Assembly (NCBI GenBank): GCA_963665115.1
Contig: OY762007.1
Coordinates: 1,440,001 to 1,504,000 of the forward strand
DNA length: 64,000 nt
DNA from: an uncultured Rivularia sp.
GTDB taxonomy: Bacteria; Cyanobacteriota; Cyanobacteriia; Cyanobacteriales; Nostocaceae
Direction of reading: 5' to 3'
The translations under genes were made by a program, and so were the position numbers. Below are positions 3,736-63,180 of this stretch, one piece after another; positions within the stretch are counted from its first letter, which is position 1, and each line of letters opens with the position of its first letter. Under the pieces are notes generated by a model. That model was given only the letters and a program-made list of their open reading frames with translations. It did not search any database and had not been told where the DNA came from.

Positions 3736-6700
3736 TTACTGGTTACTGTTCACTGAAAAAAAGTTATCGTAAAAATCAAACATTTGTGAAACGGCTTCGG
3801 GGATAACTTCGCAGTTATGAGAACGTTTTGCTAAAATTCCGAATTGATTTGATATTGTTGAAGCTGCAATTTCTGGATTAGGAATATATTCGGGTGTGGG
3901 AATATCAAAGGATGGCCCTGCTGTTTTTCCGCGTTTACCCGAAGGTAGGGTCATTAATAGTTCTCCCAAGGGACGCATCATTCCTGTCATAATATCTATG
4001 CTGGCGTTCATTAGTTTGGAGCGTCTTAAGCTTCCTTGGGGATTTGAACCGAAGTGTTGAACCATTAATTGCATCATCAGGAAGTAACTTTGGTTGAATA
4101 TTTCCATCACTGTTCTGGTTTGGGGAACGGTAACAACGTTGGAATTATGGTCTTGATGATTCAAGCTGGGATTACGAACAGATGGGTATGAAGGATTCCA
4201 AGTTCTTTTTTCTCCTTTTTTAGATTGATTAATTTGTTCTAAAGAAAGAGCGTCTGCTAAATTGCGGAATTTTTGATAATGGGATTTTGCAAATGTTTCT
4301 GTTTCAATTTCGCTTCCTTCTCCATGTTCTACAATTACGTCTACTGCAAATAAGGCGCTTTTAACGTCATACACCTGCATTTGATAATCTGGATGTTGTT
4401 TATTCAAGTTGTCTCGCATGAATAAACGGTGTTCTCCACCAACTTTGTTTTTATCAACTGTAAATAAGTCGGGAATATTTTGTAATCCATCGCGGATTTG
4501 ACCGTACAATTCGCTTAAGGAACCATATGTATGTAACTGTTCCGATATCGGAATAGTTTCGTTTACAAGGTCTTCGTTAAGAAAATCGGGCATTTCCAAC
4601 CGCATAAAATACTGTAGTGATAAAGCATTTAATGGTTCTAAAGCAAAGTCAATATCTATGGGGAATTTGGCGTTGAGTTGTTTGAAATCGGGAACTGCTG
4701 GATAAAATGGTTCGGCGATCGCCATCAATATATTGTTAACTAAAAGAAAATGAATCATTTCTTCGCGGGCAATTTCCATTAATACTCCCCGCATTCCATA
4801 ATTATCAACTTCTTTGTTATCACCACAAGCTAAATGTAATTGTTCTTGCGTCCATAATCCCCGACGAACGTATTCTTCCCCAGTGACGTAGTTGGGAACC
4901 GAATATCCGGCGTAGATATATTGCAGCATCACGGCAACTTCTAATTCTGCTGCTTGTTTTAATGCTGTGATTAATTCTTCTTTGGTTTTAATTTGATATT
5001 TAGTTTGCTCTGGTTGTTTCTGTTCCGATGGCGGAATATAACCAATTTGCTGTTGATTTTGCAGAAATTTGAGTAAAAGTTGTGATTTAGCTTCGGACAT
5101 ATCTCTTGTGGGGGGCATATAGTAAGTTTTGCTTTTATTTTTGGGGTCGGACATCTGCCACATTAAGCGAGCGTAGGTAGCAACTTTGCATTTATCTGCC
5201 AAGCTAAAAACTTCGGCTTTCATAAACGAGAAGCTGGCTTCGTAGAAAGATAATATATGTTCGTAAATTAAATTAAAATCAACATCTTGTTGCGGAATTT
5301 TATCTAAGTGCCAATCATCACCCATGACTCTTACAGCTAAGAAGCCGGAACTGTTCCAAAATCCCAGTTTATTATCGTTGTCGTAAGCAATTTCCGCTTC
5401 ATCTAAGTTATCGTAGCCACAAGCAATCTCGTTTAAGGAATTAGAAATTAATATTTTGCAAGTTCCGGCTTTGGCTCCTTTTAAAGTAAACCAACCTCTT
5501 CCTTGTTTATTGGTGGAAATTTCGCAACTTGAATTAAATTCTCCTTTATCTAAAAGTTTTCCAGGTTTTAAGCCAACGATTTGAATTTCTGAGCTATGAG
5601 GATAATGAAAAGTTTTATCTGTATTATTACTATCCCTTTCAAATTGATATCGTAATTGAGGAAAAGCTCTAGGATTATAAAATTGATTTACATATATTGA
5701 CTGTACCGATGTCGGAACACCTCTAACAAAAGAGCGCACTTCTAATTCAACAGCGTTATCTTCTCCTTTATCAAGGTTGGGAAATTCGACAAATAAACAA
5801 GCGTCATCAACTTGAAGATTAATTTCCTTCTCTTTTACTAAAACTCTTCTTTCACCATCAACGGTTCCGATAATACACAAACCTTGATTTTCAACGTCAG
5901 AACGTAAATCTTGCCAATTTTTAGAGGGGTAAAAAGGAATATCTACCAAACCGCTAGTTAACTGATGAGCTTGCTTGTTGTATGCTTCTGAAGGGATTTT
6001 TCCGATTAATCTATGACTGTTAACGGTACGAATTTCTAAATCACCTAAATTCAACTTTGAAAAAATCTTGTGAAATCCAGCTTTAGATTCAGGCGATCGC
6101 CCTACATTAGGAATCGCTGTAATCATATTTAAGCTTATCCCCTGAGAATTTAACTTCAACGTCAGATTCCCGATTGCTTTATATTCCGATTCGGGAATTA
6201 ATAACCTTCCACTGGGATAAGTTTTCAATTCCGAAAGACACCATAAACCAATAGTTCCATGTAATTCCCAGAAACTTGGTGCATCAGGTTGAACTGGTGC
6301 AGACATATTGCTGATACTAAACTGCACCACCAAACCCAAAACGTCTTCTCGCTGCATCGCTTCCTTTAACAAAGCAACCGTGGGAGAAATATTTACCTCA
6401 TCATTCCAGAGAAAATCTTCAGCATCCTTGGAAATAGCAAACTGATAAACAGCAGCTTTGCCAAACTCATCATTTAAAATATGGTCTGGTAAATCGCGAA
6501 TATAATCAAAATCTTGCCAGCGAGCTAACTGATAACCTTGTATCGGGGCAGTTACCATATAAGGAACTTGATTGGAATCACCCAACCTACCAAAAGCTAA
6601 CTGACCTAACATAATCGTATTAGTCCAATTAGAAGCCGGGGTCGCATTCAAATATCCTGGCACGATTGACGCTGGTTTTTACATACTCGTTATAATGACC

Positions 6701-7054
6701 CCAAAAATCAACGCTTCTGCCAATAACCGGGTCATTTAAATTAACTTTGCCAAACTCTGTTTGAGTACTAGTAATTTTGGCATCAATTGAAAAATGACCG
6801 TTACCACCGAAATTCCAACCCATTGCTTTACTAAAAGGGCCATTTTCATCTAATTTCCCTTCAGCATTAAATTTTGGGCCTTGATTATAAAGATATTCGT
6901 GATATTCCGAAGCCGAATGATTTTCTTTATAAGGAAGACCATTCATATAACAGGTATTGTCGCTGATGTCGATTAAACCGTTTTTATATCCCGTAGGGGC
7001 ATGAATGCGGGCTAAACCTTGGAAATGTAAGCGAGGGAAATCTAAAACGCTCAT
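3736..7054 (-). CDS. VioB/RebD/StaD-family (indole-pyruvate imine dimer / chromopyrrolate synthase-like) enzyme with C-terminal ferritin-like domain; +1 frameshift at ~6638-6641
   Basis: N-terminus MSVLDFPRLHFQG...WGHYNEYVKTSVNRAR matches VioB; YYMPPTRDMS, AAELEVAVMLQYIYAGYS, IAREEMIH and EHGEG...SHY ferritin-like motifs; deleting one C joins the 141-aa and 975-aa ORFs (ECDPASNWTN). Confidence 0.88.
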
Positions 7055-7170
7055 GTTAATTGATTATCTATATATATAGCAATTTCAACTTGTCCTATAT
7101 TTATATAGAGGTGAGCGGAGGGGGATTATGCAATTCTTTATGTCAAAGGTGAAGTTTGAATGATTTGTAT

Positions 7171-7206
7171 TTTTTACTTCTAAAATCCCCTCAAGGGGAC
7201 TAAAAA
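7171..7206 (+). CRISPR. Solitary degenerate CRISPR repeat upstream of cas6
   Basis: TTTTTACTTCTAAAATCCCCTCAAGGGGACTAAAAA vs array repeat GTTTTAATTCCTTTACCCCTCACGGGGATGGAAAC; same orientation, CCCC-N4-GGGG hairpin intact. Confidence 0.6.
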
Positions 7207-7255
7207 ATATAATATATAAAATATCAAGTATCAAATCAGTAAATCAAATGTTGCT

Positions 7256-8371
7256 ATGCTCCGACGTACTCGCAAGAAGTCAAGTGCTTCTTCATCTAAC
7301 TTAAAATGGTCGTCAAAAACTGAGTTAGTTGGCTTAGAATTTGAGTTATCGCCAGAAAAAGATGGTTATCTTTTCCCACAGTACACTATTGGACTCCATG
7401 CTTGGTTTTTGGATCAAGTACGGCAAGTGGACGCAGAATTTTCTACTTATCTCCATAATGGAGAGTCAGAAAAACCTTTTACCGTCTCTGCTTTCAATGG
7501 AGAAATGATTAGTAGCGGTAGACAAATTCAAGTATTTGCGAATAATAAATATCGCTGGTATCTCACTGCTTTATCTCAACCACTACAGCAATGGATGGCA
7601 GAATGGGTAAAAAAAATGCCTTCTACGATTGATTTACGGACTGTAAGTTTTAAAATTAATGCTTGTAATATTGTTCATGCTCCCACAACTTATGCTCAGT
7701 TGTTAAAGTCGGAAGATAATAAAAATATCACTTTAAAATTTATCAGCCCTACTAGTTTTCGTCGCAAAGGACATCATTTTCCCCTACCATTACCTACGAA
7801 TATTTTTCATAGCTATCTGCGACGCTGGAATAATTTTTCTGGGATTACTTTTGAGCAAGATGATTTTTTGGCTTGGGTGGATGAATGTGTATTGGTAAAT
7901 CGCTGTCAAATCTCAACCGATAAAGTATTGGCAGGTAAAAAAGGAGCGGTGACGGGATTCACTGGTGCAATTGAATTGAGTTTAACTAGAGAAGCAGCCA
8001 AACAACCACAATATCAACAATTATTCTACGCTCTAGGAAAACTCGCACCCTATTGCGGAACCGGACATAAAACCACCTTTGGATTGGGGCAAACCCGGTT
8101 AGGATGGACATCAAAAGTTGTACAAGATATACCCGAAGTAGAAAACCTACTAGCTAAACGCATCGAAGATTTAACAGAAACTTTCAAAGCACAACGCAAG
8201 CGCACCGGGGGAAACAGAGCTAGCGAAATTGCTTCAAAATGGGCGACAATTTTAGCAAGACGAGAAATGGGAGATTCTTTACAAGCAATTGCCCAAGATT
8301 TAGAGATGCCTTACGAAACCGTGAAAACTTATGCTAAGTTAGCGCGACGGGAGTTGAAAAAGCTGGAGTAG
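7256..8371 (+). CDS. cas6: CRISPR endoribonuclease Cas6 with C-terminal helical/HTH extension
   Basis: LHNGESEKPFTVS, KFISPTSFRRKG, G-rich loop YCGTGHKTTFGLG; ~85-aa tail containing GDSLQAIAQDLEMPYETVKTY (HTH-like). Confidence 0.93.
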   Translation: MLRRTRKKSSASSSNLKWSSKTELVGLEFELSPEKDGYLFPQYTIGLHAWFLDQVRQVDAEFSTYLHNGESEKPFTVSAFNGEMISSGRQIQVFANNKYRWYLTALSQPLQQWMAEWVKKMPSTIDLRTVSFKINACNIVHAPTTYAQLLKSEDNKNITLKFISPTSFRRKGHHFPLPLPTNIFHSYLRRWNNFSGITFEQDDFLAWVDECVLVNRCQISTDKVLAGKKGAVTGFTGAIELSLTREAAKQPQYQQLFYALGKLAPYCGTGHKTTFGLGQTRLGWTSKVVQDIPEVENLLAKRIEDLTETFKAQRKRTGGNRASEIASKWATILARREMGDSLQAIAQDLEMPYETVKTYAKLARRELKKLE

Positions 8372-8397: not shown

Positions 8398-8668
8398 CCG
8401 AACCTTGAAAAATGAATATTAAGTTTCCTGGTGAAAGCGAATGTGTTTATGTTTGCTGTTCACACGCAAGTTTTTAGCGGAGGTATGGCGATGTTTGAAA
8501 CGCTTATTCTTCCGTTACCCCCCGCTAATTGCCTGCTATATGGTGCTTTGAAGATGGTGCTTGGGTTAGTTTTTATCGATAATTTTGGTTTGTTGGTAGT
8601 TAAGTTACACCCCCCCGCTAAAATGGCACCTTGGAATCCAGTTATAGTAAGGGTTCTGGAATGGTAGG
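8398..8668 (+). promoter_or_regulatory. CRISPR leader 1
   Basis: Directly precedes the first repeat; strongly similar to the reverse complement of 20144-20412. Confidence 0.85.
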
Positions 8669-9210
8669 GTTTTAATTCCTTTACCCCTCACGGGGATGGA
8701 AACACCTGTTAAGGTCTGACTATTTGTATTATACGCAATATGTTTTAATTCTTTAACCCCTCACGGGGATGGAAACTTTTTTGCAAAGATATCTCTTAAG
8801 ATTATCTCCAATATTAGTTTTAATTCCTTTACCCCTCACGGGGATGGAAACGTACCCGAACGTCAACATTGAAGTCAGAGTAGTAAAAAGTTTTAATTCC
8901 TTTACCCCTCACGGGGATGGAAACGTGCTAAGATTAGGATCACGAACGTAGGTTTTTTTGTTTTAATTCCTTTACCCCTCACGGGGATGGAAACAAGAAA
9001 ACCCTCTCTGAACTTCCCTCTGGAAATTTCTGAGTTTTAATTCCTTTACCCCTCACGGGGATGGAAACCTTCCGTGATATCATTTAGCTTCTGAGTCAGT
9101 CTGGTTTTAATTCCTTTACCCCTCACGGGGATGGAAACGCTAGCTCACCAAACAAAACTGACATTTCAGCTTTATGTTTTAATTTCTTAACCCCTCACGG
9201 GGATTGAAAG
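8669..9210 (+). CRISPR. CRISPR array 1: 8 repeats / 7 spacers, repeat GTTTTAATTCCTTTACCCCTCACGGGGATGGAAAC (35 nt)
   Basis: Repeats start at 8669, 8742, 8817, 8890, 8960, 9034, 9104 and 9176 (last one degenerate); spacers 35-40 nt. Confidence 0.98.
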
Positions 9211-9318: not shown

Positions 9319-10128
9319 ATGGATTTACTAACTTCAATTGATATATCTCACGTTTGGGATATAGTTATCGCTCAAACTCCAACCCCAACTCCAACACCTT
9401 CACCAACATTAAATCCTGCGAAAGCTGCGAATGAAATTGAATTACTCAAAAGTCAATTAGAGTTTTTAAAAGCAACTAACGGACAATTAGGTCAAAGCTT
9501 CACTCGATTTGTTAGTGCGATGCAGTTTACTTTAGTTGCATTTGGTTTTTTGGGTGCATTTTTAACTTATATTTTTGGTAAAAATTTAGAAGACGCAAAG
9601 AAAGTTGCTAGCCAGACAATTCAACAAGAAATTGATAGCCATATTGCTGGTTTAGTACAAAAAGAAGTTAGAAATGTAAAACGAACGTTATCACGCGAAC
9701 GAGTTATTAGTTCAACTGTAGTAGATTATTATCTACCATCACCAGAAGGAGAAACAAATGAATATAAGTTACTGCAAGCAAGAGAATTCCAAGATGTAAT
9801 GTTTTGGAATAACATCAATCTTCCCCAGAGATTTACTGGTGATGTATGTGTTTTAGATTTAGAAAATTCAATTGACTCTAATAATCAAAAGTTTTCTCAA
9901 TTACCACAAGATAAACGAGAAGAAACTGCTAAACAAATTTTTGATGGATTTATTAAAATGTTGCCGTCAACCAAGACGATAGTGATTTATGTTGCTCCAC
10001 CAGCACTGAGAGCAATTAATAGTGAAAGATTTAAGGGTATATATTATGCACCTGCAAATACACCAATTACTTTAGTGGGTATGGTGGCTGATGCTGCTTA
10101 TGTAGCAAACGGACAAATTGCTCCGTAA
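9319..10128 (+). CDS. CRISPR-associated single-pass membrane protein with C-terminal alpha/beta domain (candidate type III effector)
   Basis: PT-rich linker, coiled coil, TM segment (FTLVAFGFLGAFLTYIFG), helical stalk, then DVCVLDL / TIVIYV / YYAPANTPITL strands; lies between array 1 and the end of the cas operon. Confidence 0.65.
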   Translation: MDLLTSIDISHVWDIVIAQTPTPTPTPSPTLNPAKAANEIELLKSQLEFLKATNGQLGQSFTRFVSAMQFTLVAFGFLGAFLTYIFGKNLEDAKKVASQTIQQEIDSHIAGLVQKEVRNVKRTLSRERVISSTVVDYYLPSPEGETNEYKLLQAREFQDVMFWNNINLPQRFTGDVCVLDLENSIDSNNQKFSQLPQDKREETAKQIFDGFIKMLPSTKTIVIYVAPPALRAINSERFKGIYYAPANTPITLVGMVADAAYVANGQIAP

Positions 10129-10163: not shown

Positions 10164-10820
10164 TTACTTATGTCTTATATATTTTACTTTTTTCGGAACT
10201 CCATTTTCAGTTTCAGTTATTTTGACGATTACTTGTTGTCCGAGTTCAAGTAATTGAGATTTTTTCGGTTCTTTAACAGTTTTTGTAAAAGTATTAAACA
10301 TTTTATAGGTAACTTTATTCCCACTTTTATTAGTAATCTCGGCTTCTATTTCATCATCAAGTTTTAAATCTTGAGATTTAGCGGCTGTTTGAATTTCTAG
10401 TTTACGATTTAATGCTGATAATTCTTCAAAATCTTCTAAAGGAGTAACTTTAAAGTAGTTAAATAAACGAAATGTCCAACCCAATATTTCTAATATTTGA
10501 TCGGGATTTGATTGGAATTCGATGAGATGCTGATTGCAAGCTTTATGGATACTACGATAGTAACTGGGTGTTTTTTCGCTATGTTTAATGCTTTGGCTGT
10601 TATCAACTAATGCTTTTAAATATTTAAAAAAACTTGTACCAGCTTCAGATTTATTCCGATTTATCGCAGCACGTAAATAAGCTACAATTTTTCCTAATTC
10701 AGAGCGAATTCCATCTTTATTCGCTTCAATATTTTGCTGTTCTTGAACTAGTATTTTCGCAATTTCGTGAGCAGTATTCCACATTTTATCTTCTGAGCAA
10801 GATCCTTTGACTTCCACCAT
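10164..10820 (-). CDS. Last gene of cas operon: Cas11/Cmr5-like helical domain plus putative OB/S1-like C-terminal domain
   Basis: 15 bp after the preceding RAMP; helical N-domain ending ILEILGWTFRLF; beta-rich basic tail (IEAEITNKSGNKVTYK...LGQQVIVKI). Confidence 0.55.
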   Translation of the reverse strand: MVEVKGSCSEDKMWNTAHEIAKILVQEQQNIEANKDGIRSELGKIVAYLRAAINRNKSEAGTSFFKYLKALVDNSQSIKHSEKTPSYYRSIHKACNQHLIEFQSNPDQILEILGWTFRLFNYFKVTPLEDFEELSALNRKLEIQTAAKSQDLKLDDEIEAEITNKSGNKVTYKMFNTFTKTVKEPKKSQLLELGQQVIVKITETENGVPKKVKYIRHK

Positions 10821-10835
10821 TTATTTTCCTCTAAT

Positions 10836-11918
10836 TTAGTTGTTAATTCTTAGTATTGCTGTTAATTCCTGTAGCTGCTGAGTTTGTATTAATGGTCTGT
10901 TACCCGGTTTAATCGGTTTTTTTAATTGATTATTATTTGTTGTTACTGGGGTTTGAGGTTTAGCGGATTGGATAGCATCTAATATAAACTGTTTTAATGT
11001 ATTTTCTTCTAAAACCGAATTGTTTGGATTATAGGATAAGTAACGATTAATTTCTAACTGTTCTATTTTAACTATATCAATTTTCATAGTTCCCATTCCT
11101 ACAGCTTTACCGCTACCAATTTTTAATCCCAGTCGGTTTTCTGGATCTTGTCCGAGAGCAATTAATAATGCTCCTAATTGCATTTTTGTTAGGTTGCTAT
11201 AATTCACATAAGTTGTAAATCTTTTTCCTAATTCTGCTTGTTGAATACGAATTGTAGGTGTGACTTCTTCATCTTCTTGGTAGGAATGAGGATAAAACTT
11301 TCTACCGCGAATTTTGTTATTGTTATCGTAATAAATTTTTTCCTGAGTTTCACGATTTTCAGCTTTAGGTTTAGGAGAAAATAAAGCAGGAATCAATCCT
11401 GTATCGAAACCTGATTTATCGTTATCGGGGTCATATTTCGCATCATAAAAATGTACTAATCCCAGCCAATTCATTGCTCCAAATATGACGCAAGCCGGAC
11501 AAAGTTCTGATGTATCTTTACATTCACTGTAATTATTAGGAATCTCTTCTCTTCTGGCATCAGTTTTGCACAAACAACTTCTTGTAATTGCTTCATAAAT
11601 TGAACGTACAACCCCCTTGAGCGAACTACCGGGAATAATAAGTCTGTGGTTTTGCTGTACGGAAGATTGAATTAAGCTTAATTTAGCGACATATCTTGCT
11701 GAAACAGTATCTATTTGCTGTGCTAAATCGCTACCCATGACGGTAATACCTGAATTTACGGATACAGGTGAAACAACTGTTAAATTCAAATATAATTTAC
11801 CGCTAAAACGTTTATTAGTTAGTTGATATTTATTGTGACCAAACTTTTGATTACCTTGAATGTTTATTCTGTCAGGTGCTGTTTGAGGAAGAGAAATAAA
11901 ATTATAGTTACTAGGCAT
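10836..11918 (-). CDS. Type III-D Cas7-family RAMP (Csm5-like)
   Basis: IIPGSSLKGVVRSIYEAIT, Cys cluster CLC...CPACVIFG, RGRKFYPH, G-loop KIGSGKAVGMG. Confidence 0.88.
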   Translation of the reverse strand: MPSNYNFISLPQTAPDRINIQGNQKFGHNKYQLTNKRFSGKLYLNLTVVSPVSVNSGITVMGSDLAQQIDTVSARYVAKLSLIQSSVQQNHRLIIPGSSLKGVVRSIYEAITRSCLCKTDARREEIPNNYSECKDTSELCPACVIFGAMNWLGLVHFYDAKYDPDNDKSGFDTGLIPALFSPKPKAENRETQEKIYYDNNNKIRGRKFYPHSYQEDEEVTPTIRIQQAELGKRFTTYVNYSNLTKMQLGALLIALGQDPENRLGLKIGSGKAVGMGTMKIDIVKIEQLEINRYLSYNPNNSVLEENTLKQFILDAIQSAKPQTPVTTNNNQLKKPIKPGNRPLIQTQQLQELTAILRINN

Positions 11919-11953
11919 ATTTTTTGAGATTTTTTTAAATTAAAGTTCACAAA

Positions 11954-12418
11954 TTACTTGTTTATAGTTAGAGCGACAAAATGCACTGTTGAAGTTTGAA
12001 CATCTTGAAAATAACGCTGAGCTAAAGATATTTTTTTCGGCTCTATATTATCTTGAGATTCATTTTTGTAAGTAAACCCTTGAGGGAATTTAGTTTCATC
12101 AATATCATAAAAATATGCATTGCGATCGCAAGTTTTCCAATGTTTACCAATAGAGTTAAATTCTAATTCCTTATTTGGCTGATTTTGACTGAGCAACAAC
12201 ACTTGATACCCGCTACTATTTTTTTTCCAGCGTAACTCTAATTCCACGTTAAACATTTGCCCTTCTGCACTAATAAATTCGGGTGGTAAATAAGTTAAAA
12301 TACCACTAACCTTGTGTTTCCAACGCAGAAAATAATAACTGGGTTGCCGATAACAATCTTTGAGTAATGTTTGTAATTTTTCAGAAGATGAAACTTGTTT
12401 ACAACCAACAAAAGTCAT
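11954..12418 (-). CDS. csx19: Type III-D signature protein Csx19
   Basis: ~154 aa, EGQMFNVELELRWKK motif, position between Cas7 genes. Confidence 0.7.
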   Translation of the reverse strand: MTFVGCKQVSSSEKLQTLLKDCYRQPSYYFLRWKHKVSGILTYLPPEFISAEGQMFNVELELRWKKNSSGYQVLLLSQNQPNKELEFNSIGKHWKTCDRNAYFYDIDETKFPQGFTYKNESQDNIEPKKISLAQRYFQDVQTSTVHFVALTINK

Positions 12419-13386
12419 GCACTAACTCCCTGTGGTAAGATATCACGCCATTGACGAACAGCACGCTCAAATAAATCTGGGACACCCCTTTCACTATCAC
12501 CTTCCCAAATAAGCTGTACTCCAAAACCATAAGACATTTCTTCTGCTGTAATTATTGAGTCCTGTTTATCATCAATCGGAAATCCATACAGGTTTTCTTC
12601 TTGTAAAAATTCTCCTGCTCCTAATAAAAACGTTTTTGGCCAATTTAATTCTTTCCCAATGGCGTAGATTTTATCATCTCGCAACTCACAACCAGGATAT
12701 TGCACTACTGCTGAGTGAAGTTGTAGTTTGACTGTACCCATACCGCGAGATTTGGCAAAACCAATACCAAACCAACCGTCATTTAAGTCACGCAATACTA
12801 AACCAATTAAACCCAACTGTGCTAAAGAGAAATTTTTCAGGTGAATTTTTGTGCGAAAATCTCCAGATGTACAAACTTCGTAGTTAAATAATGCACCCCT
12901 GACAGCAGAGCCAAATACTCTATCGATCGCGACTCCATTACGTTCTTCAATTTTCAATGGTTGGGATGGATTGGGATAAGCATCTTCGATACGAAGCCGA
13001 CTAGCTATGATAGTACTGCCAAATAATTGGTCGGTAAACGAAGATTTTTTGTAGATTTCATGGGGAAGTAACTTCTTTTTTAATTCTTCTTGATTTCTAA
13101 TATTTTGCTTATCTAATGGATTACTAGCCCAAATAGTTGTACTATTTTCTGATGGTGGTTTATCATCACCTACAGTTCTGACAATGCGTTCGGCATGAGC
13201 GCGAATTGCCCCTTTAAGCGAACTTCCTGGTAAAAAAATCGAACGTCCACCAGCATGATAAGTTTCCACAAATTCCATATCAGGTTTAGTTGGGTTTGCA
13301 CCTTCTTTTCCCGACTTAATTAAAATTGGCCCATCGGGAATTATGCTGAGTTCAATAGTGCATTGGTTAACTAATCGCTTATGCAT
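12415..13386 (-). CDS. csm3: Cas7-family RAMP (Csm3 group)
   Basis: FLPGSSLKGAIRAHAERI, ERNGVAIDR, GIGFAKSRGMG. Confidence 0.88.
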   Translation of the reverse strand: MHKRLVNQCTIELSIIPDGPILIKSGKEGANPTKPDMEFVETYHAGGRSIFLPGSSLKGAIRAHAERIVRTVGDDKPPSENSTTIWASNPLDKQNIRNQEELKKKLLPHEIYKKSSFTDQLFGSTIIASRLRIEDAYPNPSQPLKIEERNGVAIDRVFGSAVRGALFNYEVCTSGDFRTKIHLKNFSLAQLGLIGLVLRDLNDGWFGIGFAKSRGMGTVKLQLHSAVVQYPGCELRDDKIYAIGKELNWPKTFLLGAGEFLQEENLYGFPIDDKQDSIITAEEMSYGFGVQLIWEGDSERGVPDLFERAVRQWRDILPQGVSA

Positions 13387-13388
13387 GA

Positions 13389-14255
13389 CTAATTTTCTCC
13401 GCTTGTGGTATTAGCTATAGATTTTTCTGGAATTAAACACCTCAAGTACCAAAGTAGAGCTTCAGTCCATTTCTTCTTGAAATCATTAATTTCTTCTCCT
13501 CGATACTGATATTCATCCATATTTCCTGCAACTTGATTTTGCATATATGTTAATAACTTTCCAGAATCACCTTCTGCATCAAACCACTGCATTTGGTCAA
13601 TTTCCAAACGCACAACTCCTAAACCACGAGAACGCCCACCTCCGAGCGGTATCTGTTCGCTTTCAAACTGATGTAAACCAATCGCCAACAAACCTAGTTC
13701 CCACTTTTCGGCATTTTCTACTACTACTTTCATATCAAAACTAGTACCAGAAGGAACTACCTGAAAATCATATAGTTTTCCATCTGCTGCTGTTTCAGTA
13801 TCCCTATCAATTGCAACACCATCTCGTTCTTGATATTGTCCAAACCATGTATCGGCAACTACGGTTAAATCCCGCACTTGAAATTTACTAGCAAACCAAG
13901 GAGAACCGAATAAACGAGAAATTGAATCAGTTTGCTCTAATAATTGATCTGTTAAAACAGCATCATCTTGATAATCTTCCTTTAACTTTTTTATTGCTTG
14001 GTTACGAGCTTGACTGGTAAAATTAGCTGGATCTTCTGCTAAATTGATATTAATCCCCCGCAAAAAACTTTCAAGACGCGATCGCAATGCACCTTTGAAG
14101 CTGGCACCAGGAATTAATGGTCTATCTAATGCATCTTTTATTACAGGTAAATCGGCTCCAATTGGTTCGGTAGAACGACCGGAACTAATACGTAATGCGG
14201 TGACTGTAGAAAGTTTTCCAGTTATTTCTAAACGATTTTTAAACACATCAAACAT
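13389..14255 (-). CDS. csm3: Cas7-family RAMP (Csm3/Csx7 backbone subunit)
   Basis: IGADLPV (putative catalytic Asp), LIPGASFKGALRS, RDGVAIDRDT, LGGGRSRGLG. Confidence 0.9.
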   Translation of the reverse strand: MFDVFKNRLEITGKLSTVTALRISSGRSTEPIGADLPVIKDALDRPLIPGASFKGALRSRLESFLRGININLAEDPANFTSQARNQAIKKLKEDYQDDAVLTDQLLEQTDSISRLFGSPWFASKFQVRDLTVVADTWFGQYQERDGVAIDRDTETAADGKLYDFQVVPSGTSFDMKVVVENAEKWELGLLAIGLHQFESEQIPLGGGRSRGLGVVRLEIDQMQWFDAEGDSGKLLTYMQNQVAGNMDEYQYRGEEINDFKKKWTEALLWYLRCLIPEKSIANTTSGEN

Positions 14256-14260
14256 AATTA

Positions 14261-14758
14261 TTATCCGGTTTGATTATTTTCTTCAACATTTTGTAAGTCA
14301 ATACGAGCGTCTATAATAGATGAATCTTTTTCTGTTTTTATTTTGTTGAGATACGTTAAATAGCGAGAACCATAACCAATATAACGACGAATTAACTGTA
14401 TCCAAATATATTTAAAATCCGCACCGGGGTTATCCGTTTCTATTTGTTTAGCTTTAACTTTGATAGAAACATCTATATCCTGAATGATTCGAGCAGCAAG
14501 AGAATCTTTACCTCTTCCCCATTTTTCATCCCTACCAACTTGATAACAAATAAAATTTTTAATCACTTCTGCGCTATCAGTTGTGTCAGCAACGCGGAGT
14601 AAATTATTAAACTGCGATTCCTCTAATTTTTTATTCCCAGATTTAGTATATTTACAATTATCTAAAGCGGTTTCTATTGCAATCACTAAATCATCTTCTG
14701 ATTGACGAATTGCTTGCTGTACTTTTAGCGCAATCTTTGGATCTAATATTTGAGTCAT
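14261..14758 (-). CDS. csm2: Small subunit Cas11 (Csm2-like)
   Basis: All-helical, SQFNNLL...IKNFICYQVGR motif; canonical III-D position after csx10. Confidence 0.78.
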   Translation of the reverse strand: MTQILDPKIALKVQQAIRQSEDDLVIAIETALDNCKYTKSGNKKLEESQFNNLLRVADTTDSAEVIKNFICYQVGRDEKWGRGKDSLAARIIQDIDVSIKVKAKQIETDNPGADFKYIWIQLIRRYIGYGSRYLTYLNKIKTEKDSSIIDARIDLQNVEENNQTG

Positions 14759-16032
14759 TTAGCCTCCTCTCGAAAAACTTGATGAAATTCATTACAAACT
14801 TCCACCTGTCCAAAACCTTCACAAGTGCGATCGCCTATTCCCGTTTTTGATAAATTTTCTAATGCTAAATACCATTTTTCTGGTTGCTTTGTACTAAATA
14901 AGTATACAGAACCTTTATTAGTAACTAATTCCACGTCTTTCATCAATCCCCAAGCGGAATTCCATCCACTACGGTAGTCATAGCTACTGTAAGCAACGTG
15001 CATTTCCAGCGATGAATCGTCAACATTGGTAAAATCTTTGAGCATACACTTTGAAATAACCGTAGTTCGCTGCCAGTTTTCGCTTAAAATAGCATCAGAT
15101 TGTAAATCGATAGTGAAATAAGTTTTACCTGTTAATAAATCATTTTCACATTTACCGAAAATAGACCAAAGTCCCCATCTAGTTTGCAACGTTTGATTAA
15201 ATTCTTCAATTCGATTTTGAATTCTTTTGATTGATGTTTCTTGTCTGCTAACTTCAATTTTGACTTTACCTAAACCCCTAGAAACAGAACCACCTATGCG
15301 AAAGTTATTTTTATTTCTTTGAATAAAATCTTGCAACTTTCCAGCTAAAGATTCATCAGAAACCCGCACAAAACCGCGAAAAACAAAATTATTCCATTCA
15401 TCCGTTTTAGTACTTTTCAAAAAAGACTCATTTAAAACTTGAATGCTGTAAAGAATTTCTTCTTCCGAAGTTGCACGACGGCGATTAATTCCCACCCGCG
15501 TTAAAAAACGGCTACTTGCATCATGACTGTAATAATGACTATCTACTAAGCTATAAAAACTACCGTAAGTTTCCACCTGGGGGTTTGTTCCTTGGGCGAT
15601 CGCTCTTGGATCGCTCGACTCAAAAGGTTGATTATAAGCTGCTGCACAAAAAGCATCAATAAGAGTATCAAAAACTCCATGTCCATTGCTACACTTAAAA
15701 CCCGGATTGGTTTTGGAACTAACAGCAGTTGCTGGTAAAACCTTGATTTGACTACTGACAGCTATCGATTCATCATTGATTTTCCTCACTGCTGGATAAG
15801 CATTGCCAAAAATAGCCGGACTTTCATCTAAAAATAAACTTTGAAAATCACCTCCATTTTCCGCTAGATTTGCAGAATATCGACCGGATAAATGTAAAAT
15901 TTGAGAGGCGATCGCACCCCGCAAAACCGAACCAGAAATATAGTTTTCTACCTCGCTAACGGAAGTACCGGGTTTTAGTTTTCCTAGTGCCAGGGGAGAT
16001 AAAGCTGTAATAGTTAATTCCAGTTGCGTCAT
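14755..16032 (-). CDS. csx10: Csx10 RAMP (type III-D)
   Basis: YISGSVLRGAIA, RVGINRRRATSEE, IGGSVSRGLG and a second G-loop GIGDRTCEGFG; likely start MTQLEL at 16032, overlapping the upstream stop (ATGA). Confidence 0.88.
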   Translation of the reverse strand: MTQLELTITALSPLALGKLKPGTSVSEVENYISGSVLRGAIASQILHLSGRYSANLAENGGDFQSLFLDESPAIFGNAYPAVRKINDESIAVSSQIKVLPATAVSSKTNPGFKCSNGHGVFDTLIDAFCAAAYNQPFESSDPRAIAQGTNPQVETYGSFYSLVDSHYYSHDASSRFLTRVGINRRRATSEEEILYSIQVLNESFLKSTKTDEWNNFVFRGFVRVSDESLAGKLQDFIQRNKNNFRIGGSVSRGLGKVKIEVSRQETSIKRIQNRIEEFNQTLQTRWGLWSIFGKCENDLLTGKTYFTIDLQSDAILSENWQRTTVISKCMLKDFTNVDDSSLEMHVAYSSYDYRSGWNSAWGLMKDVELVTNKGSVYLFSTKQPEKWYLALENLSKTGIGDRTCEGFGQVEVCNEFHQVFREEAK

Positions 16033-16742
16033 GGCTTTACCTCTGGTAATAAACTTAACCAAGCCTCATCGTTTTTCGTAATTTTTGGTAATCCTTTCCA
16101 GCGCAACCAACCCAACCCCGCAGACTTGCTACCACCCAGAGCATGAATATGATGTAAAGCTGCAATTATCAAAGGTTTAGCATAATTTGGGCAGTCTGGT
16201 TGTAGATGAATTTCTCCTTTAAAACTTAGTTGAGCATTTGCGGGAGAAGTTTCTAATAAATATAATTTTTTCTCATCTGCGGTACGTCTTCTGCGGTTAA
16301 TTGTCACCCCCGGACGCAATACTTCTGGTAAATCTACTGAGGCAAAATCACAAATTAGGTCATCAACAATAATTCGTGAAGGTAAAATCGGATTGCCAAA
16401 TATCTGAGAAACCAAACAGTGATATCCTCGATAGCCAGAAACTTGATAAGCTGTTCTAAACTGACTAGAAACTTCCGTTTCTTGAGGGCAAAGTGATTTA
16501 GCTGTGGGTGCAGAAAAGATTTGCCATCCCAAACAACGCGCCAATTTCTCGCATTCATGACGCAATCTGCCTTTAAGTTGAGAAGCTGGAATCAATAGTT
16601 GCCCTTGTGCATTACGCACAATAGGTTTGTCAGCTAAAGAACCACTCGATCCACCTGCACCTACACACAATGCACTATCAATTACAGCATTGAGAATAAT
16701 AGTATCAGTTTCTATTGAAGTAAGGTTATCCAAATCAATCAT
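16029..16742 (-). CDS. csm3: Cas7-family RAMP (Csm3 group)
   Basis: GSLADKPIV, LIPASQLKGRLRH, RPGVTINRRR, LGGSKSAGLG. Confidence 0.9.
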   Translation of the reverse strand: MIDLDNLTSIETDTIILNAVIDSALCVGAGGSSGSLADKPIVRNAQGQLLIPASQLKGRLRHECEKLARCLGWQIFSAPTAKSLCPQETEVSSQFRTAYQVSGYRGYHCLVSQIFGNPILPSRIIVDDLICDFASVDLPEVLRPGVTINRRRRTADEKKLYLLETSPANAQLSFKGEIHLQPDCPNYAKPLIIAALHHIHALGGSKSAGLGWLRWKGLPKITKNDEAWLSLLPEVKP

Positions 16743-19108
16743 TAATTTACCTCCCGTGGAGATGATTCCTCTGCAATAAATTCATCTGCTTCTTCTGGAA
16801 TAAATGGATATAAATCAACTAATTCTCGCCAAATCGTTTCGTAGGTCATTTTCGATTTTTCTGCTTCTTGTGATTCTTCTTGTAAAGACATCCAAGGTGC
16901 TAAATTTCCATGATTAGATGATTCTTTTGGTTGACACCAAGCTAATTCAAATCTTTCCTGTAATTCTTGTCTAGCCAATTCGTTTGTTAAACGAACGCGA
17001 AAATAGCGATAATTAAGGATAGCTGTACGCTTACCTTTTTCCAGTAAACTGCGAATTTGATAAAGTTGCGAACGAGGAAATTTAGCTTTTTTAAAAGCAT
17101 GAGCAGTTTCCAAAAGTCCTCCTAATTCATGTAGAGTATAGGGAGAAGCATAAAGCTTTAATTTGGATTGTCCATCTTTATTCTTAATTAATCCCTGCTC
17201 CCGAAATTCCTTGATATTAGAAGAAATCATCGTTACAGCTTTCATTACTAAAAAATCTACAGTTCCACTATAATATTGATGGTCTTTCTTCAATTCTTTA
17301 GCATATTTTTTCGCAGATTTTAATAATTGACTAACTAATTTATCTGCATAGTATATCGGTGTATCTTGCGCTGTAATTAAAACCCCAGTTGACATACTCA
17401 ACAGACATTTAGAAGCTGGGATATTATCTGTAATGTAACGATGTGTAAATGAATTATATTTCTCTTCTTTTAATGAATAATTTCGAGTTTGTAGTAATAA
17501 CCTTTCAAATTCATCGCCAATCATCTTAGCAATTTCTAAAGCCTTGTCAGCCGGTACAACTAAGAGTACATCATCACCACCAATAGTAATAATTTCAAAA
17601 GGATGAATTAAAACGGATTCTTTTTTCCTTCTGCTAGATTTAGCATCAGGTGTATATTTAGAAGGATGTAAATAACTTGCTAAAGCTTTGTAAACAGATT
17701 TCTCGGTAGCATTAAAAATATCTTGACTAAAAAGTCGATAGCTCTGGGATGTTTTAATCTTTTGACGAATATAGCCACCCATATTATTACCATCAGCATA
17801 GATATAAGCAACAAATCCTGATGGATTACTTGAGGAAGCAATTTCTCTTAAAGAGCGTGCTTCTTCTACTTTGTCTTTCTCACTAACACCAACAGAGCTA
17901 TAATATCGATTTGCTAATTCTTGGTTCCCTTCTTCTTCAAGAAACTTCTTAAACTTATCTACCCAACTAGGAATCCAAATATCACCAGGTTTCCATTCCA
18001 AACCAGCATTGTTATACCATGCATGAGAACTTTCCCGTTTAGCAACCTCTCCTACTAAACGTTTTCGCGCTAAAGGCTCCGATAAAAAGCGAGTATTTGG
18101 CAACTCTGCCGTCATGATTGCACAACGGCGATCGCTTTCATCTCGTCGTAGATAAGGATGAGTTTCAAACATCGGTGGGTAGCAACGACTGGGACGATTT
18201 TCAACAGAATTACCGTTCTGACGAGGAGTGAATTCGTTATTTTCAACAGAATTACCATTCCGACGACGGGTGAATTCGTTAGCCAATTTTCCCACCAATT
18301 CATTAAAATTCTTACGGTTGTGAAACCTTTGCAAAGGATTGCTAACTTCCGACTGCTCGAAATAACTTTTAACTATGGGATTTTCTTGATTTTTCTCATA
18401 CTTATCAAACCAAAAAGTATCTTCAATATTGTCTTGCAATAATCCAAATCGAAATTCCAACAACCGGAAAGTATCGCCAACCGCACAGGAATTTGCTGTT
18501 AAAGTTTCATCGGTATAGCGTTTTTCAATTGCATTCGCCAAATCATCAACAAAAGCTGCCGGACAAAATGCGAGAATATTACCACCTGTAGAGTAGACGA
18601 TCAATTCCGGAATTAAAGCTTGTCTTAGATTTAGATTAGGAAAATTTCTATCCAACCACTGCTCAATTGTAATTGACTTCTGACCTTCACCAAAAAAAGC
18701 AGGTAAATCAACCAAATTTATTCTATCGAGAAGCGCAGAAGCACCGCGTATATCATGGAGTTTAGCAGCTTCAAACACATATTGTTTAATCTTTGTCGCA
18801 CCACCATAAACCAAACCGATAGGTGTATCTTCATCCCAAAGATTTGGATATTTATCTTTTAATTGTAAAAGTGTCTGAGGTTGATATTCTTCACCAATAT
18901 CATAAAGTTGCTCTGCCAGCTTTACAAAACGTTGCACCTCATCAGGTAAAACCTGCTTTTCACCCTCACTTGCGCTTGTAGGAGCTAATAATACCTGTCG
19001 CATTTTCTTCAATTCACTGAGTTCATCCTGAACCAAAGTGTGCTTTTTGCCCCAAGCGAGACACCAAGCAAAAGCAGTGATTGTGCGCGTGCGAGAGTCG
19101 TTTGTCAT
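16742..19108 (-). CDS. cas10: Cas10 (type III-D large subunit), cyclase palm intact, no HD domain evident
   Basis: IKQYVFEAAKLHDIRGASALL, YADGNNMG, IITIGGDDVLL; only ~95 aa before palm 1, with no HD motif there. Confidence 0.95.
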   Translation of the reverse strand: MTNDSRTRTITAFAWCLAWGKKHTLVQDELSELKKMRQVLLAPTSASEGEKQVLPDEVQRFVKLAEQLYDIGEEYQPQTLLQLKDKYPNLWDEDTPIGLVYGGATKIKQYVFEAAKLHDIRGASALLDRINLVDLPAFFGEGQKSITIEQWLDRNFPNLNLRQALIPELIVYSTGGNILAFCPAAFVDDLANAIEKRYTDETLTANSCAVGDTFRLLEFRFGLLQDNIEDTFWFDKYEKNQENPIVKSYFEQSEVSNPLQRFHNRKNFNELVGKLANEFTRRRNGNSVENNEFTPRQNGNSVENRPSRCYPPMFETHPYLRRDESDRRCAIMTAELPNTRFLSEPLARKRLVGEVAKRESSHAWYNNAGLEWKPGDIWIPSWVDKFKKFLEEEGNQELANRYYSSVGVSEKDKVEEARSLREIASSSNPSGFVAYIYADGNNMGGYIRQKIKTSQSYRLFSQDIFNATEKSVYKALASYLHPSKYTPDAKSSRRKKESVLIHPFEIITIGGDDVLLVVPADKALEIAKMIGDEFERLLLQTRNYSLKEEKYNSFTHRYITDNIPASKCLLSMSTGVLITAQDTPIYYADKLVSQLLKSAKKYAKELKKDHQYYSGTVDFLVMKAVTMISSNIKEFREQGLIKNKDGQSKLKLYASPYTLHELGGLLETAHAFKKAKFPRSQLYQIRSLLEKGKRTAILNYRYFRVRLTNELARQELQERFELAWCQPKESSNHGNLAPWMSLQEESQEAEKSKMTYETIWRELVDLYPFIPEEADEFIAEESSPREVN

Positions 19109-19318: not shown

Positions 19319-20143
19319 GTTTTCATCCCCGTGAGGGGTTAAAGAATTAAAACTAATGCTCGATCAAGGTGGAACAGCTTCTGTTGCTGAGTTTCCATCC
19401 CCGTGAGGGGCTAAGGAATTAAAACCATGTCTGCTTTCCCCGGAGCGAAAGATGCTGGACAGTTTCCATCCCCGTGAGGGGTTAAAGAATTAAAACCAGA
19501 TTTGTAAGAATACATCAAAATAGCGAGGGAAAAGTTTCCATCCCCGTGAGGGGTTAAAGAATTAAAATAAAGAGTTGGAGGAATAGGAATTATCCTTGCT
19601 TCAGTTTCCATCCCCGTGAGGGGTTAAAGAATTAAAACCTTTTCTCCGGCTCTTGCTGGTAGCAATGGGATTAAGTTTCCATCCCCGTGAGGGGTTAAAG
19701 AATTAAAACACCTAGTGGAAAATATGGCAGTGGAACTCGCTAATTTGTTTCCATCCCCGTGAGGGGTTAAAGAATTAAAACGACTTGATTGACTTTCGCC
19801 CCATCGCTTGCAAGATGTTTCCATCCCCGTGAGGGGTTAAAGAATTAAAACACGAATATCTGGAACTGGAGCACACGTTGTGCATTCAGTGGTTTCCATC
19901 CCCGTGAGGGGTTAAAGAATTAAAACCAGTTTATTTTAGATATTTTTTCTGGATGTGGTAAAGATTGTTTCCATCCCCGTGAGGGGTTAAAGAATTAAAA
20001 CCGTTGATTGGGATTGCGATAAGAATGGAACTTTCTCGTTTCCATCCCCGTGAGGGGTTAAAGAATTAAAACAAGTTACAAGTAATAAATTCGCTATATT
20101 TGCGGATCGTTTCCATCCCCGTGAGGGGTTAAAGAATTAAAAC
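19319..20143 (-). CRISPR. CRISPR array 2: 12 repeats / 11 spacers, repeat GTTTTAATTCTTTAACCCCTCACGGGGATGGAAAC
   Basis: Reverse-complement repeats start at 19319, 19391, 19462, 19534, 19604, 19675, 19747, 19817, 19892, 19967, 20038 and 20109. Confidence 0.98.
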
Positions 20144-20412
20144 CCTACCTATTTAGAACCCTTACTATAACTGGATTCCAAGGTGCCATTTTAGCGGGGG
20201 GTCTAATTTAACTACCAATAAACCGAAGTTATCGATAAAAACTAACCCAAACACCAGCTTCAAAGCACCATGCAATAGTCAATTAGCGGGGGGTAACGGA
20301 AGAATCATTGTTATGGCGATCGCCCTACCCCCGCTAAAATCTTACGTATACTCTGTCAAAACAAACACTGCTGTTTTGAATTGGAAACGTATAATTAAGT
20401 TGTCAAGGTTCT
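20144..20412 (-). promoter_or_regulatory. CRISPR leader 2
   Basis: Inverted homolog of leader 1 (e.g. CCGCTAAAATGGCACCTTGGAATCCAGTTATAGTAAGGGTTCT is shared). Confidence 0.85.
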
Positions 20413-62674: not shown

Positions 62675-63180
62675 CTAGTAGTCCTTTTCATTAGTTCCGA
62701 TGGGTTGTAGAGACGTTATACATAACGTCTCCCGAAGGTTACGGGAAAAACGAACCCTTCATAATTTATGCAATCGACTACTAGTAGTACTCCGCCACAT
62801 TAATTATGATAGGTTCGTAGTTGCGCTTTAGCGCCAAATATTTAGGGCTAAAACCCTTATGTACAAACAATAATTTATCCATCAAAATTAATGTGGTGGA
62901 AGGGTTCCGGGAGTGCGAGCATCTTGCTCGCTGGTTGTCACGAGGGAGCGAGACGCTCCCACCACATTAATTTTGCGGGGTGAACATCAATTTTATTTGA
63001 AATCGAATAATTCTCTTTATTCTCTTCTTCCGCGCTCTCTGCGGTTTTTTTAACGTTGAAAACCCATCAAAACTAATGAAATGAACTACTAATAGTCGAT
63101 TGTACAAATTCTGAATGGTTTGTTTTCCCGGAAACCGTCGGGAGACGTAGCACTGCTACGTCTCTACAACCCGTCGGAAT
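62675..63180. repeat. Intergenic patchwork of dispersed palindromic repeats
   Basis: GTAGAGACG..CGTCTC; GGTTCGTAGTTGCGCTTTAGCGCC (inverted copy at 32440-32490); GCGAGCATCTTGCTCGC; GGGAGCGAGACGCTCCC. Confidence 0.7.

Follow-up and report, generated by a model that had tools for sequence, protein, structure and literature searches.

The cas6 locus and its repeat-like element

The window, which is the whole 64,000-nt stretch of DNA analysed here, carries a cyanobacterial type III-D CRISPR system. The features that are referred to below are the following, in order of position:

7170..7206, + strand: decayed full-length (37-nt) CRISPR repeat, left over from the terminal repeat of an array that once lay upstream
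7186..7199: TCCCC-TCAA-GGGGA, an inverted repeat that forms the conserved core of the element and is the proposed operator, occurring once in the genome and perfect in 101 of 218 orthologous upstream regions
7199..7206, + strand: remnant of the 8-nt repeat tag, ACTAAAAA, a tag that is partly kept among solitary copies
7208..7213, + strand: second -10-like hexamer TATAAT, produced by a short insertion found only in the window and L004 among 12 aligned loci
7217..7222, + strand: conserved -10-like hexamer TAAAAT, with invariant columns T118, A119, A120, A122 and T123 in 12 aligned relatives
7256..8371, + strand: cas6, encoding a 371-aa protein of the long type III-D clade (Alr1482/Cas6-2a type), above the cut-off of TIGR01877 and with its best fold matches to Thermus Cas6
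8138..8365, + strand: C-terminal four-helix domain of Cas6 (aa 295-370), a sigma70-region-4/LuxR-like helix-turn-helix (HTH) and proposed reader of the palindrome
8669..9210, + strand: CRISPR array 1, 8 repeats with the stem A-CCCC-TCAC-GGGG-A
10164..19108, - strand: type III-D effector operon, with cas10, the RAMP genes csx7/csx10 and others
19319..20143, - strand: CRISPR array 2, 12 repeats of the family shared with array 1

Among the relatives kept, the nearest named relatives of the window Cas6 come from Rivularia and Calothrix records and share 88-89% identity with it. Neither cas1 nor cas2 was detected among the 17 ORFs scanned in positions 1-25000 of the window, and the 269-aa ORF located between array 1 and the effector operon (9319-10128, + strand) had no match in Pfam or NCBIfam. 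The leaders of the two arrays (8600-8668 and 20144-20215) are near-identical inverted copies lying on either side of the effector operon. The host genome also has one array with a 5-nt loop. On the other side of cas6, a divergent vioB-like gene (3736-7054, - strand) is broken by a frameshift near 6640, which is either a sequencing error or the mark of a pseudogene; both of its pieces match TIGR04492.

As originally predicted, a repeat-like element lies in sense orientation about 50 nt before the cas6 ATG (7171-7206, + strand), with 49 nt separating the end of its tag from the ATG at 7256. Over its whole length it can also be aligned with the repeat of the local array if a single gap is allowed, sharing 26 of 35 positions with the variant at 8742 and 24 of 35 with the major variant, and it has kept the TCCCC-TCAA-GGGGA hairpin, whose fold is a 5-bp stem around a 4-nt loop. 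The stem of the solitary element is closed by T/A, whereas the stems of the window arrays are closed by A/A. When compared with the array repeat of the L074 locus, the element matches at 31 of 37 positions, ungapped (counted by eye). By these alignments, the window element is closer to the L074-type repeat family, of which the host genome has no array, than to the window's own arrays. The element thus consists of a stem-loop and an 8-nt 3' tag within a unit of 35-37 nt, the tag being degenerate; it has no adjoining repeat and does not belong to a regularly spaced array.

Taken alone, the resemblance between the element and the local repeat is weak. Over its 3' 21 nt the element shares 15 of 21 positions with that repeat (by eye), and three non-array sites of the genome share 17 of 21. 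The element stayed below threshold in Rfam (CRISPR-DR21, E 0.16), and the 101-nt leader folded no better than its shuffled versions (z -1.0). Outside arrays, the motif CCCC-N4-GGGG occurs 22 times in the 8.69-Mb genome; TCCCC-N4-GGGGA was observed once, against about 5 occurrences expected. Among 5266 long ORFs, only one, the window cas6, has the palindrome within 150 nt upstream, and 8 ORFs have it with one mismatch. It is because of this position and of the conservation described below, and not because of its likeness to the local repeat, that the element is not regarded as a chance match.

An intrinsic terminator was considered and rejected: no hairpin followed by a U tract was found on either strand between 6950 and 7400, and the A-run before the stem is not conserved. 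The hairpin core of the local arrays is also reproduced exactly at two isolated sites, G000:C1:4342586 and G000:C1:6062984, each about 350 nt from a paralogous ORF.

Conservation and origin of the palindrome

Upstream regions of cas6 orthologues were taken from named genomes (80 kept of 221), metagenomes (80 of 206) and two plasmids, and further from a 401-genome class sample that provided 30 loci and 60 fetched regions of 104 matches. This gave 219 loci whose final 60 nt differ from one another and for which 150 nt or more of upstream sequence is available. The mis-anchored locus L087 was left out, which brought the set to 218 including the window. Counts on 217 rows or fewer omit L107, an 84%-identical relative from which the element is absent.

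It had been suggested that a hairpin co-varying with the array would be found upstream of cas6 orthologues. Its conservation was confirmed: within 150 nt upstream of cas6, the palindrome was perfect in 101 of the 218 loci, had one mismatch in 22 and two in 16, and was absent in 79. The co-variation was not: of the 19 solitary loci with an array in view, 4 share their loop with that array and 1 shares its tag. Since the loci are kin and partly duplicated across collections, such counts overstate independence and should be read as a pattern, not as independent trials.

The perfect site becomes rarer with distance, from 69 of 123 loci at 50-59% Cas6 identity to 1 of 27 at 40-49%. On a quick tree of 80 proteins, which cannot separate gain of the element from its loss, its presence in 40 rows needs 12 changes, at least 6 of them forced. 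None of 30 short, HTH-less cas6 genes of type I-D has the site, although this control is imperfect as those genes process other repeats and some of them are operon-internal. The site is also missing from the naturally HTH-less members of the clade, of which there are 3, too few to weigh. In 401 genomes, a composite pattern of palindrome, tag and hexamer was matched 14 times; 6 of the matches are at cas6 starts and 8 in arrays, and there is none elsewhere. Viral contigs contained 7 pattern matches. No cas6 flanks any of these, and five are preceded by an A run, as for an opposite-strand terminator.

Every upstream CCCC-N4-GGGG, with the flanks left free, was then set against array repeats, giving 83 solitary copies and 57 array consensus repeats. 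A T precedes the stem in 79 of the 83 solitary copies vs 35 of the 57 array repeats, and an A follows it in all 83 solitary copies. In all 9 cases, several of them close kin, in which the array carries A or G at that position, a T is found in the solitary copy. The spacing of the arms is strict, with a gap of 4 nt in 101 of 217 loci, of 2 nt in 1, and of 3, 5, 6, 7 or 8 nt in none. No alternative GC-rich 5-bp stem was found in the 94 site-less loci. The loop sequence is variable, with 45 kinds in solitary copies vs 6 in arrays, and GNRA loops make up 10 of 83 in the former vs 41 of 57 in the latter; the 5' stalk of the solitary copies is random and their tag is partly kept. From the counts for closing T, gap, loop, stalk and array match, the solitary element is therefore stricter than the RNA substrates of Cas6 in its symmetry and looser otherwise. 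The single mismatches comprise 8 C>T changes in the left arm, 4 G>A changes in the right arm, 3 other stem changes and 7 changes of the closing T; they lean to RNA-compatible changes, but not significantly, and do not discriminate between RNA and DNA.

The neighbourhood of the element is informative about its origin. In 20 of 108 hairpin-bearing loci, an array repeat lies 55-130 nt upstream of it, and some of the terminal copies equal the array repeat while others have already drifted. Between close relatives, similarity collapses upstream of the element. The upstream arrays, this collapse and the 31/37 likeness to the L074 repeat therefore show that the element is the trailer repeat of a former array, left at the cas6 promoter. 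According to this scenario, cas6 would formerly have followed an array whose trailer repeat became part of the promoter. After loss or replacement of that array, selection would have preserved the 14-bp palindrome and let stalk, loop and tag drift.

The palindrome and the cas6 promoter

A scan of positions 6950-7400 with the sigma70 consensus gave no + strand promoter with a canonical -35 box. On the - strand, a sigma70-like match (10/12; 7206-7234) would direct transcription of the vioB-like gene from a start within the palindrome, with 1.7 such matches expected by chance in the region. As listed above, two -10-like hexamers lie between the tag and cas6. A TANNNT hexamer 3-4 nt after the tag is present in 29 of 36 loci vs 10 of 371 internal array repeats, and no conserved hexamer was found upstream of the hairpin in these 36 loci. 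The leaders predicted from the hexamer are mostly 19-27 nt long. Because the -10-like hexamer is downstream of the hairpin, the latter would usually be in the promoter and not in the leader. Among the 83 solitary copies, the hexamer is offset by +4 in 31, +3 in 7, 0 in 8, -1 in 7 and -6 in 8, and 7 have none. Chlorogloeopsis PCC 6912 (L020) has the +4 hexamer. The commonest spacing places the site over the -35 zone, and the distance between palindrome and hexamer varies by more than 10 nt, unlike that of a fixed -35 box.

At the window locus, the start of cas6 is predicted at about 7220-7229, the TAAAAT hexamer giving about 7229; from either hexamer the start would fall beyond 7206. The original prediction was that Cas6 binds or cuts its own mRNA leader, and a transcription start beyond 7206 had been named as counting against it. 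The downstream hexamer and the collapse of upstream similarity place the predicted start beyond that position, so that this RNA mechanism is probably wrong for the window locus. The leader architecture does hold in Fischerella. In the accessible text of Koch et al. (2017; PMC5580265), the cas6 start of Fischerella PCC 7414 and 7521 is given as 89 nt upstream of the ATG, which by this published start puts the palindrome at +45..+58, in the 5' UTR. Among orthologues whose site is perfect, only these two have a mapped start. The two strains are without the +3/+4 hexamer, and in their leader the stem is extended to 10-11 pairs (RNAfold). The Fischerella locus L033 had matches in 7 metatranscriptome runs; in the 4 runs compared with L032, some contigs cross the hairpin, starts and cuts being invisible in contigs.

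Synechocystis offers a different arrangement. A cas6 row is absent from the TSS supplement of Synechocystis 6714. The Synechocystis starts seen in the accessible part of PMC4195498 are 62931 for cas6-2a, which has no perfect site, and 62807 for the III-Dv effector operon. A palindrome copy with two mismatches (L084:8890-8903; pSYSA 62827-62840) is found at -20..-33 of the latter, between the -35 and -10 zones of this upstream effector-operon start, with a shuffle P of about 0.02 that is weak and post hoc.

A candidate operator for Cas6 and the alternatives

The proposed reader of the palindrome is the C-terminal tail of Cas6. The Pfam model Sigma70_r4_2 matched the window Cas6 with an E of 9e-4 and was above cut-off in L032, and the tail itself had weak sigma70 region 4 and LuxR matches in Pfam and NCBIfam. 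Its fold is predicted with confidence (pLDDT 88.8). The fold neighbours of this model include the DNA-binding domains of sigma region 4, DeoR and NarL, with cyclin folds among them, at middling Z-scores (7.3 at best); Foldseek gave no match at E 0.001 and a comparison of the tail sequence with the PDB gave nothing significant. The domain is rare, with 148 representatives at E 0.001. Alr1482 of Anabaena PCC 7120 and Cas6-2a (Slr7068) of Synechocystis PCC 6803 belong to the same clade and have the same 70-aa C-terminal domain as the window Cas6, with residues 23-371 of which Slr7068 aligns at 43%. According to the accessible text of Reimann et al. (2020; 10.1101/2020.04.14.041012), the sigma4-like domain of Alr1482 is conserved in the clade, its function is "elusive" and binding of dsDNA has been suggested; that text names neither a target of the domain nor a repeat-derived site in the cas6 promoter. 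Of 210 proteins, 88 are encoded by genes without the site, and their HTH is just as conserved. No substitute site was found near these site-less genes, and no residue of the recognition helix separates genes with the site from those without; T355, K357, Y359, K361 and R364 are invariant.

The site has the marks of an operator, namely a conserved inverted repeat with a fixed gap and a free gap sequence, next to a gene whose product has an HTH domain. A symmetric, fixed-gap, free-loop site over the -35 zone, together with an orphan HTH, is most simply accounted for by an autorepression operator. We give an even chance to the reading that the core of the element is a DNA operator bound by the C-terminal HTH of Cas6, which would repress the cas6 promoter. 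In its favour are the strict arms and gap beside a free loop and stalk, the lack of co-variation with local arrays, the downstream hexamer, the restriction of the composite pattern to cas6 starts and arrays, the site-less HTH-less genes of type I-D, the fold of the tail and, weakly, the two-mismatch copies of Synechocystis. It is opposed by the Fischerella starts, the equal conservation of the HTH where there is no site, the site-less relative L107, the near absence of the site at 40-49% identity, the lean of the mismatches, the partly kept tag and the middling fold scores. Two Cas6 HTHs, probably in a dimer, would each read one arm of the palindrome, the downstream hexamer would be the working cas6 promoter at the window locus, and binding of the HTHs would repress cas6. 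Arrays with the same T-closed palindrome would titrate Cas6 off the operator and thereby scale cas6 output to array size; since the site is unique in the window genome, the loop there would be one of simple negative feedback. That the element serves cas6 feedback, rather than being there by chance, is the part of the original prediction that probably stands, with DNA in place of RNA as the likelier carrier at this locus.

Such an operator and feedback at the RNA level need not exclude each other. A wider and more tentative proposal is that the cyanobacterial type III-D Cas6 is a two-way reader, whose RNase cuts the repeat hairpin as RNA and whose tail binds the same palindrome as DNA. It would be an autorepressor titratable by genomic arrays and pre-crRNA, through which the cell would count its repeats and adjust Cas6 output accordingly, and in Fischerella the site, moved to the leader, may act on RNA.

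With the palindrome, a Cas6 domain of elusive function has a defined candidate target of 14 bp, and the operator reading may also be relevant to the dampening of the I-D system that has been reported for Alr1482. Should the reading be true, a nuclease that processes crRNA would also act as a transcription factor that needs no guide, and a CRISPR repeat would have taken on the role of a cis-regulatory DNA site. Type III systems would then own a repeat-derived control element that was not seen by the published survey. No description of a repeat-derived operator for Cas6 was found in the literature covered, most subscription journals being outside its scope.

The alternative that survives best, although we consider it unlikely, is feedback through RNA. 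A promoter further upstream, or read-through out of an array or a neighbouring gene, would yield RNA containing the hairpin, and Cas6 would bind it or cut after GGGG, destabilising or uncoupling its own mRNA. The Fischerella leader, with its start at -89 and extended stem, fits this, and so do the sense orientation with the partly kept tag, the same-sense arrays that lead up to the element at 20 of 108 loci, and the 8 C>T vs 4 G>A changes in the arms. In addition, cleavage by Cas6-2a is described in the accessible part of PMC5741207 as dependent on the hairpin and tolerant of non-cognate repeats in long transcripts. RNA-level feedback is plausible, especially in Fischerella and at loci with array read-through. 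It is opposed by the -10-like box, which in most lineages is downstream of the hairpin with none conserved upstream, by solitary copies that keep the closing T more faithfully than real substrates do but vary more in loop and stalk, and by the lack of co-variation with cognate arrays.

The palindrome could also be a part of the promoter read by RNA polymerase or a host factor and not by Cas6, the HTH having another target such as array or leader DNA. The position over the -35 zone in the commonest spacing would suit this, as would the conservation of the HTH in the absence of the site and the occurrence of the same HTH in non-Cas6 proteins. A host regulon would not be expected to have a site that is unique in the genome and a composite that occurs at no non-cas6 gene in 401 genomes, and the distance to the hexamer, varying by more than 10 nt, speaks against a promoter box. 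We hold this explanation to be improbable.

A third possibility is a small RNA of the CreR/CreA or decoy (Racr-like) type, destined for an effector complex. It is suggested by a repeat-like hairpin with an 8-nt tag beside a cas gene, and a decoy or regulatory crRNA-like RNA was part of the original prediction. It did not hold up at the locus, where neither a second repeat nor a target was found. The window locus does not have two repeat-like units flanking a 20-60 nt spacer, as CreR/CreA have; the best matches for a second repeat on either side were 15-18 of 35-37 positions, and no seed match of at least 10 nt was found elsewhere in positions 1-25000 of the window. The would-be spacer is the promoter itself, and no upstream promoter is conserved. 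The element, with 26 of 35 positions and a gap, is not near-identical to its cognate repeat and is much more degenerate than the solitary repeat units described in the accessible published texts. Such an RNA is accordingly very unlikely here.

The window element does share with mini-arrays, solitary repeat units and CreR/CreA a derivation from repeats, a position beside a cas gene and a link to cas autorepression (10.1101/2023.03.03.530964; 10.1101/2023.03.10.532045, as far as accessible). In the same sources, these known elements work as RNA guides: they have a spacer, their target is flanked by a PAM, and they hardly differ from the cognate repeat, whereas the window element has no second repeat, no target and no co-variation. 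As far as the accessible text of Shmakov et al. goes (10.1101/2023.03.03.530964), regulatory mini-arrays were found in type I, and the survey saw no conserved units in type III-D, where the window element lies, type III units being judged degraded. The least probable explanation, a neutral relic of the trailer repeat that is at times regenerated by array gain and loss beside cas6, agrees with that judgement of repeat-like units near type III as degraded and non-functional, with the clear descent from a terminal repeat, and with the absence of the palindrome, even at two mismatches, from 79 of 218 loci, but it is disfavoured because a neutral relic would decay evenly, while here ten arm positions are fixed, and loop and stalk randomised, across proteins about 50-60% identical.

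Autorepression through an inverted repeat is familiar from anti-CRISPR operons, whose Aca autorepressors are HTH dimers on inverted repeats and exert negative feedback on a CRISPR-related promoter; Aca2 also binds an RNA stem-loop. Cas9/tracr-L autorepression is another case of negative feedback on a CRISPR-related promoter. Under the operator reading, the regulator would differ from both in being the crRNA-processing nuclease, and the operator in being a co-opted repeat. Cbp1 likewise binds CRISPR repeat DNA and modulates transcription, but it is, in the accessible part of PMC3315313, a stand-alone archaeal protein that acts on arrays. NCBIfam models Cbp1 as an HTH family, and its profile matched 1 of 38 tail sequences, faintly (E 0.016), which makes Cbp1 at most a functional analogue of the Cas6 tail.

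The tail also occurs outside Cas6. Among the top 68 matches, 32 proteins have at least 160 aa; 22 of these have a Cas6 core, and 7 others fall in a KilA-N or HTH-led family. This rare family, with its N-terminal HTH or KilA-N domain, includes Synechocystis Sll7075 (L084:12999-14039, - strand, pSYSA), whose gene lies beside the CRISPR2 leader. The family was represented by one partial match without the tail in 401 genomes, by none in the second sample (0/401) and by none in viral contigs. The 72-nt leader of sll7075 contains a palindrome copy with two mismatches (shuffle P about 0.04, weak, post hoc and a single case). Sll7075 was named Cas6-2b (PMC3575380, accessible part). It has no match to a Cas6 profile and has only the tail in common with the long Cas6 proteins, at 51% over 70 aa. 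This tail comparison suggests that the Synechocystis 'Cas6-2b' is probably a DNA-binding HTH protein rather than a nuclease.
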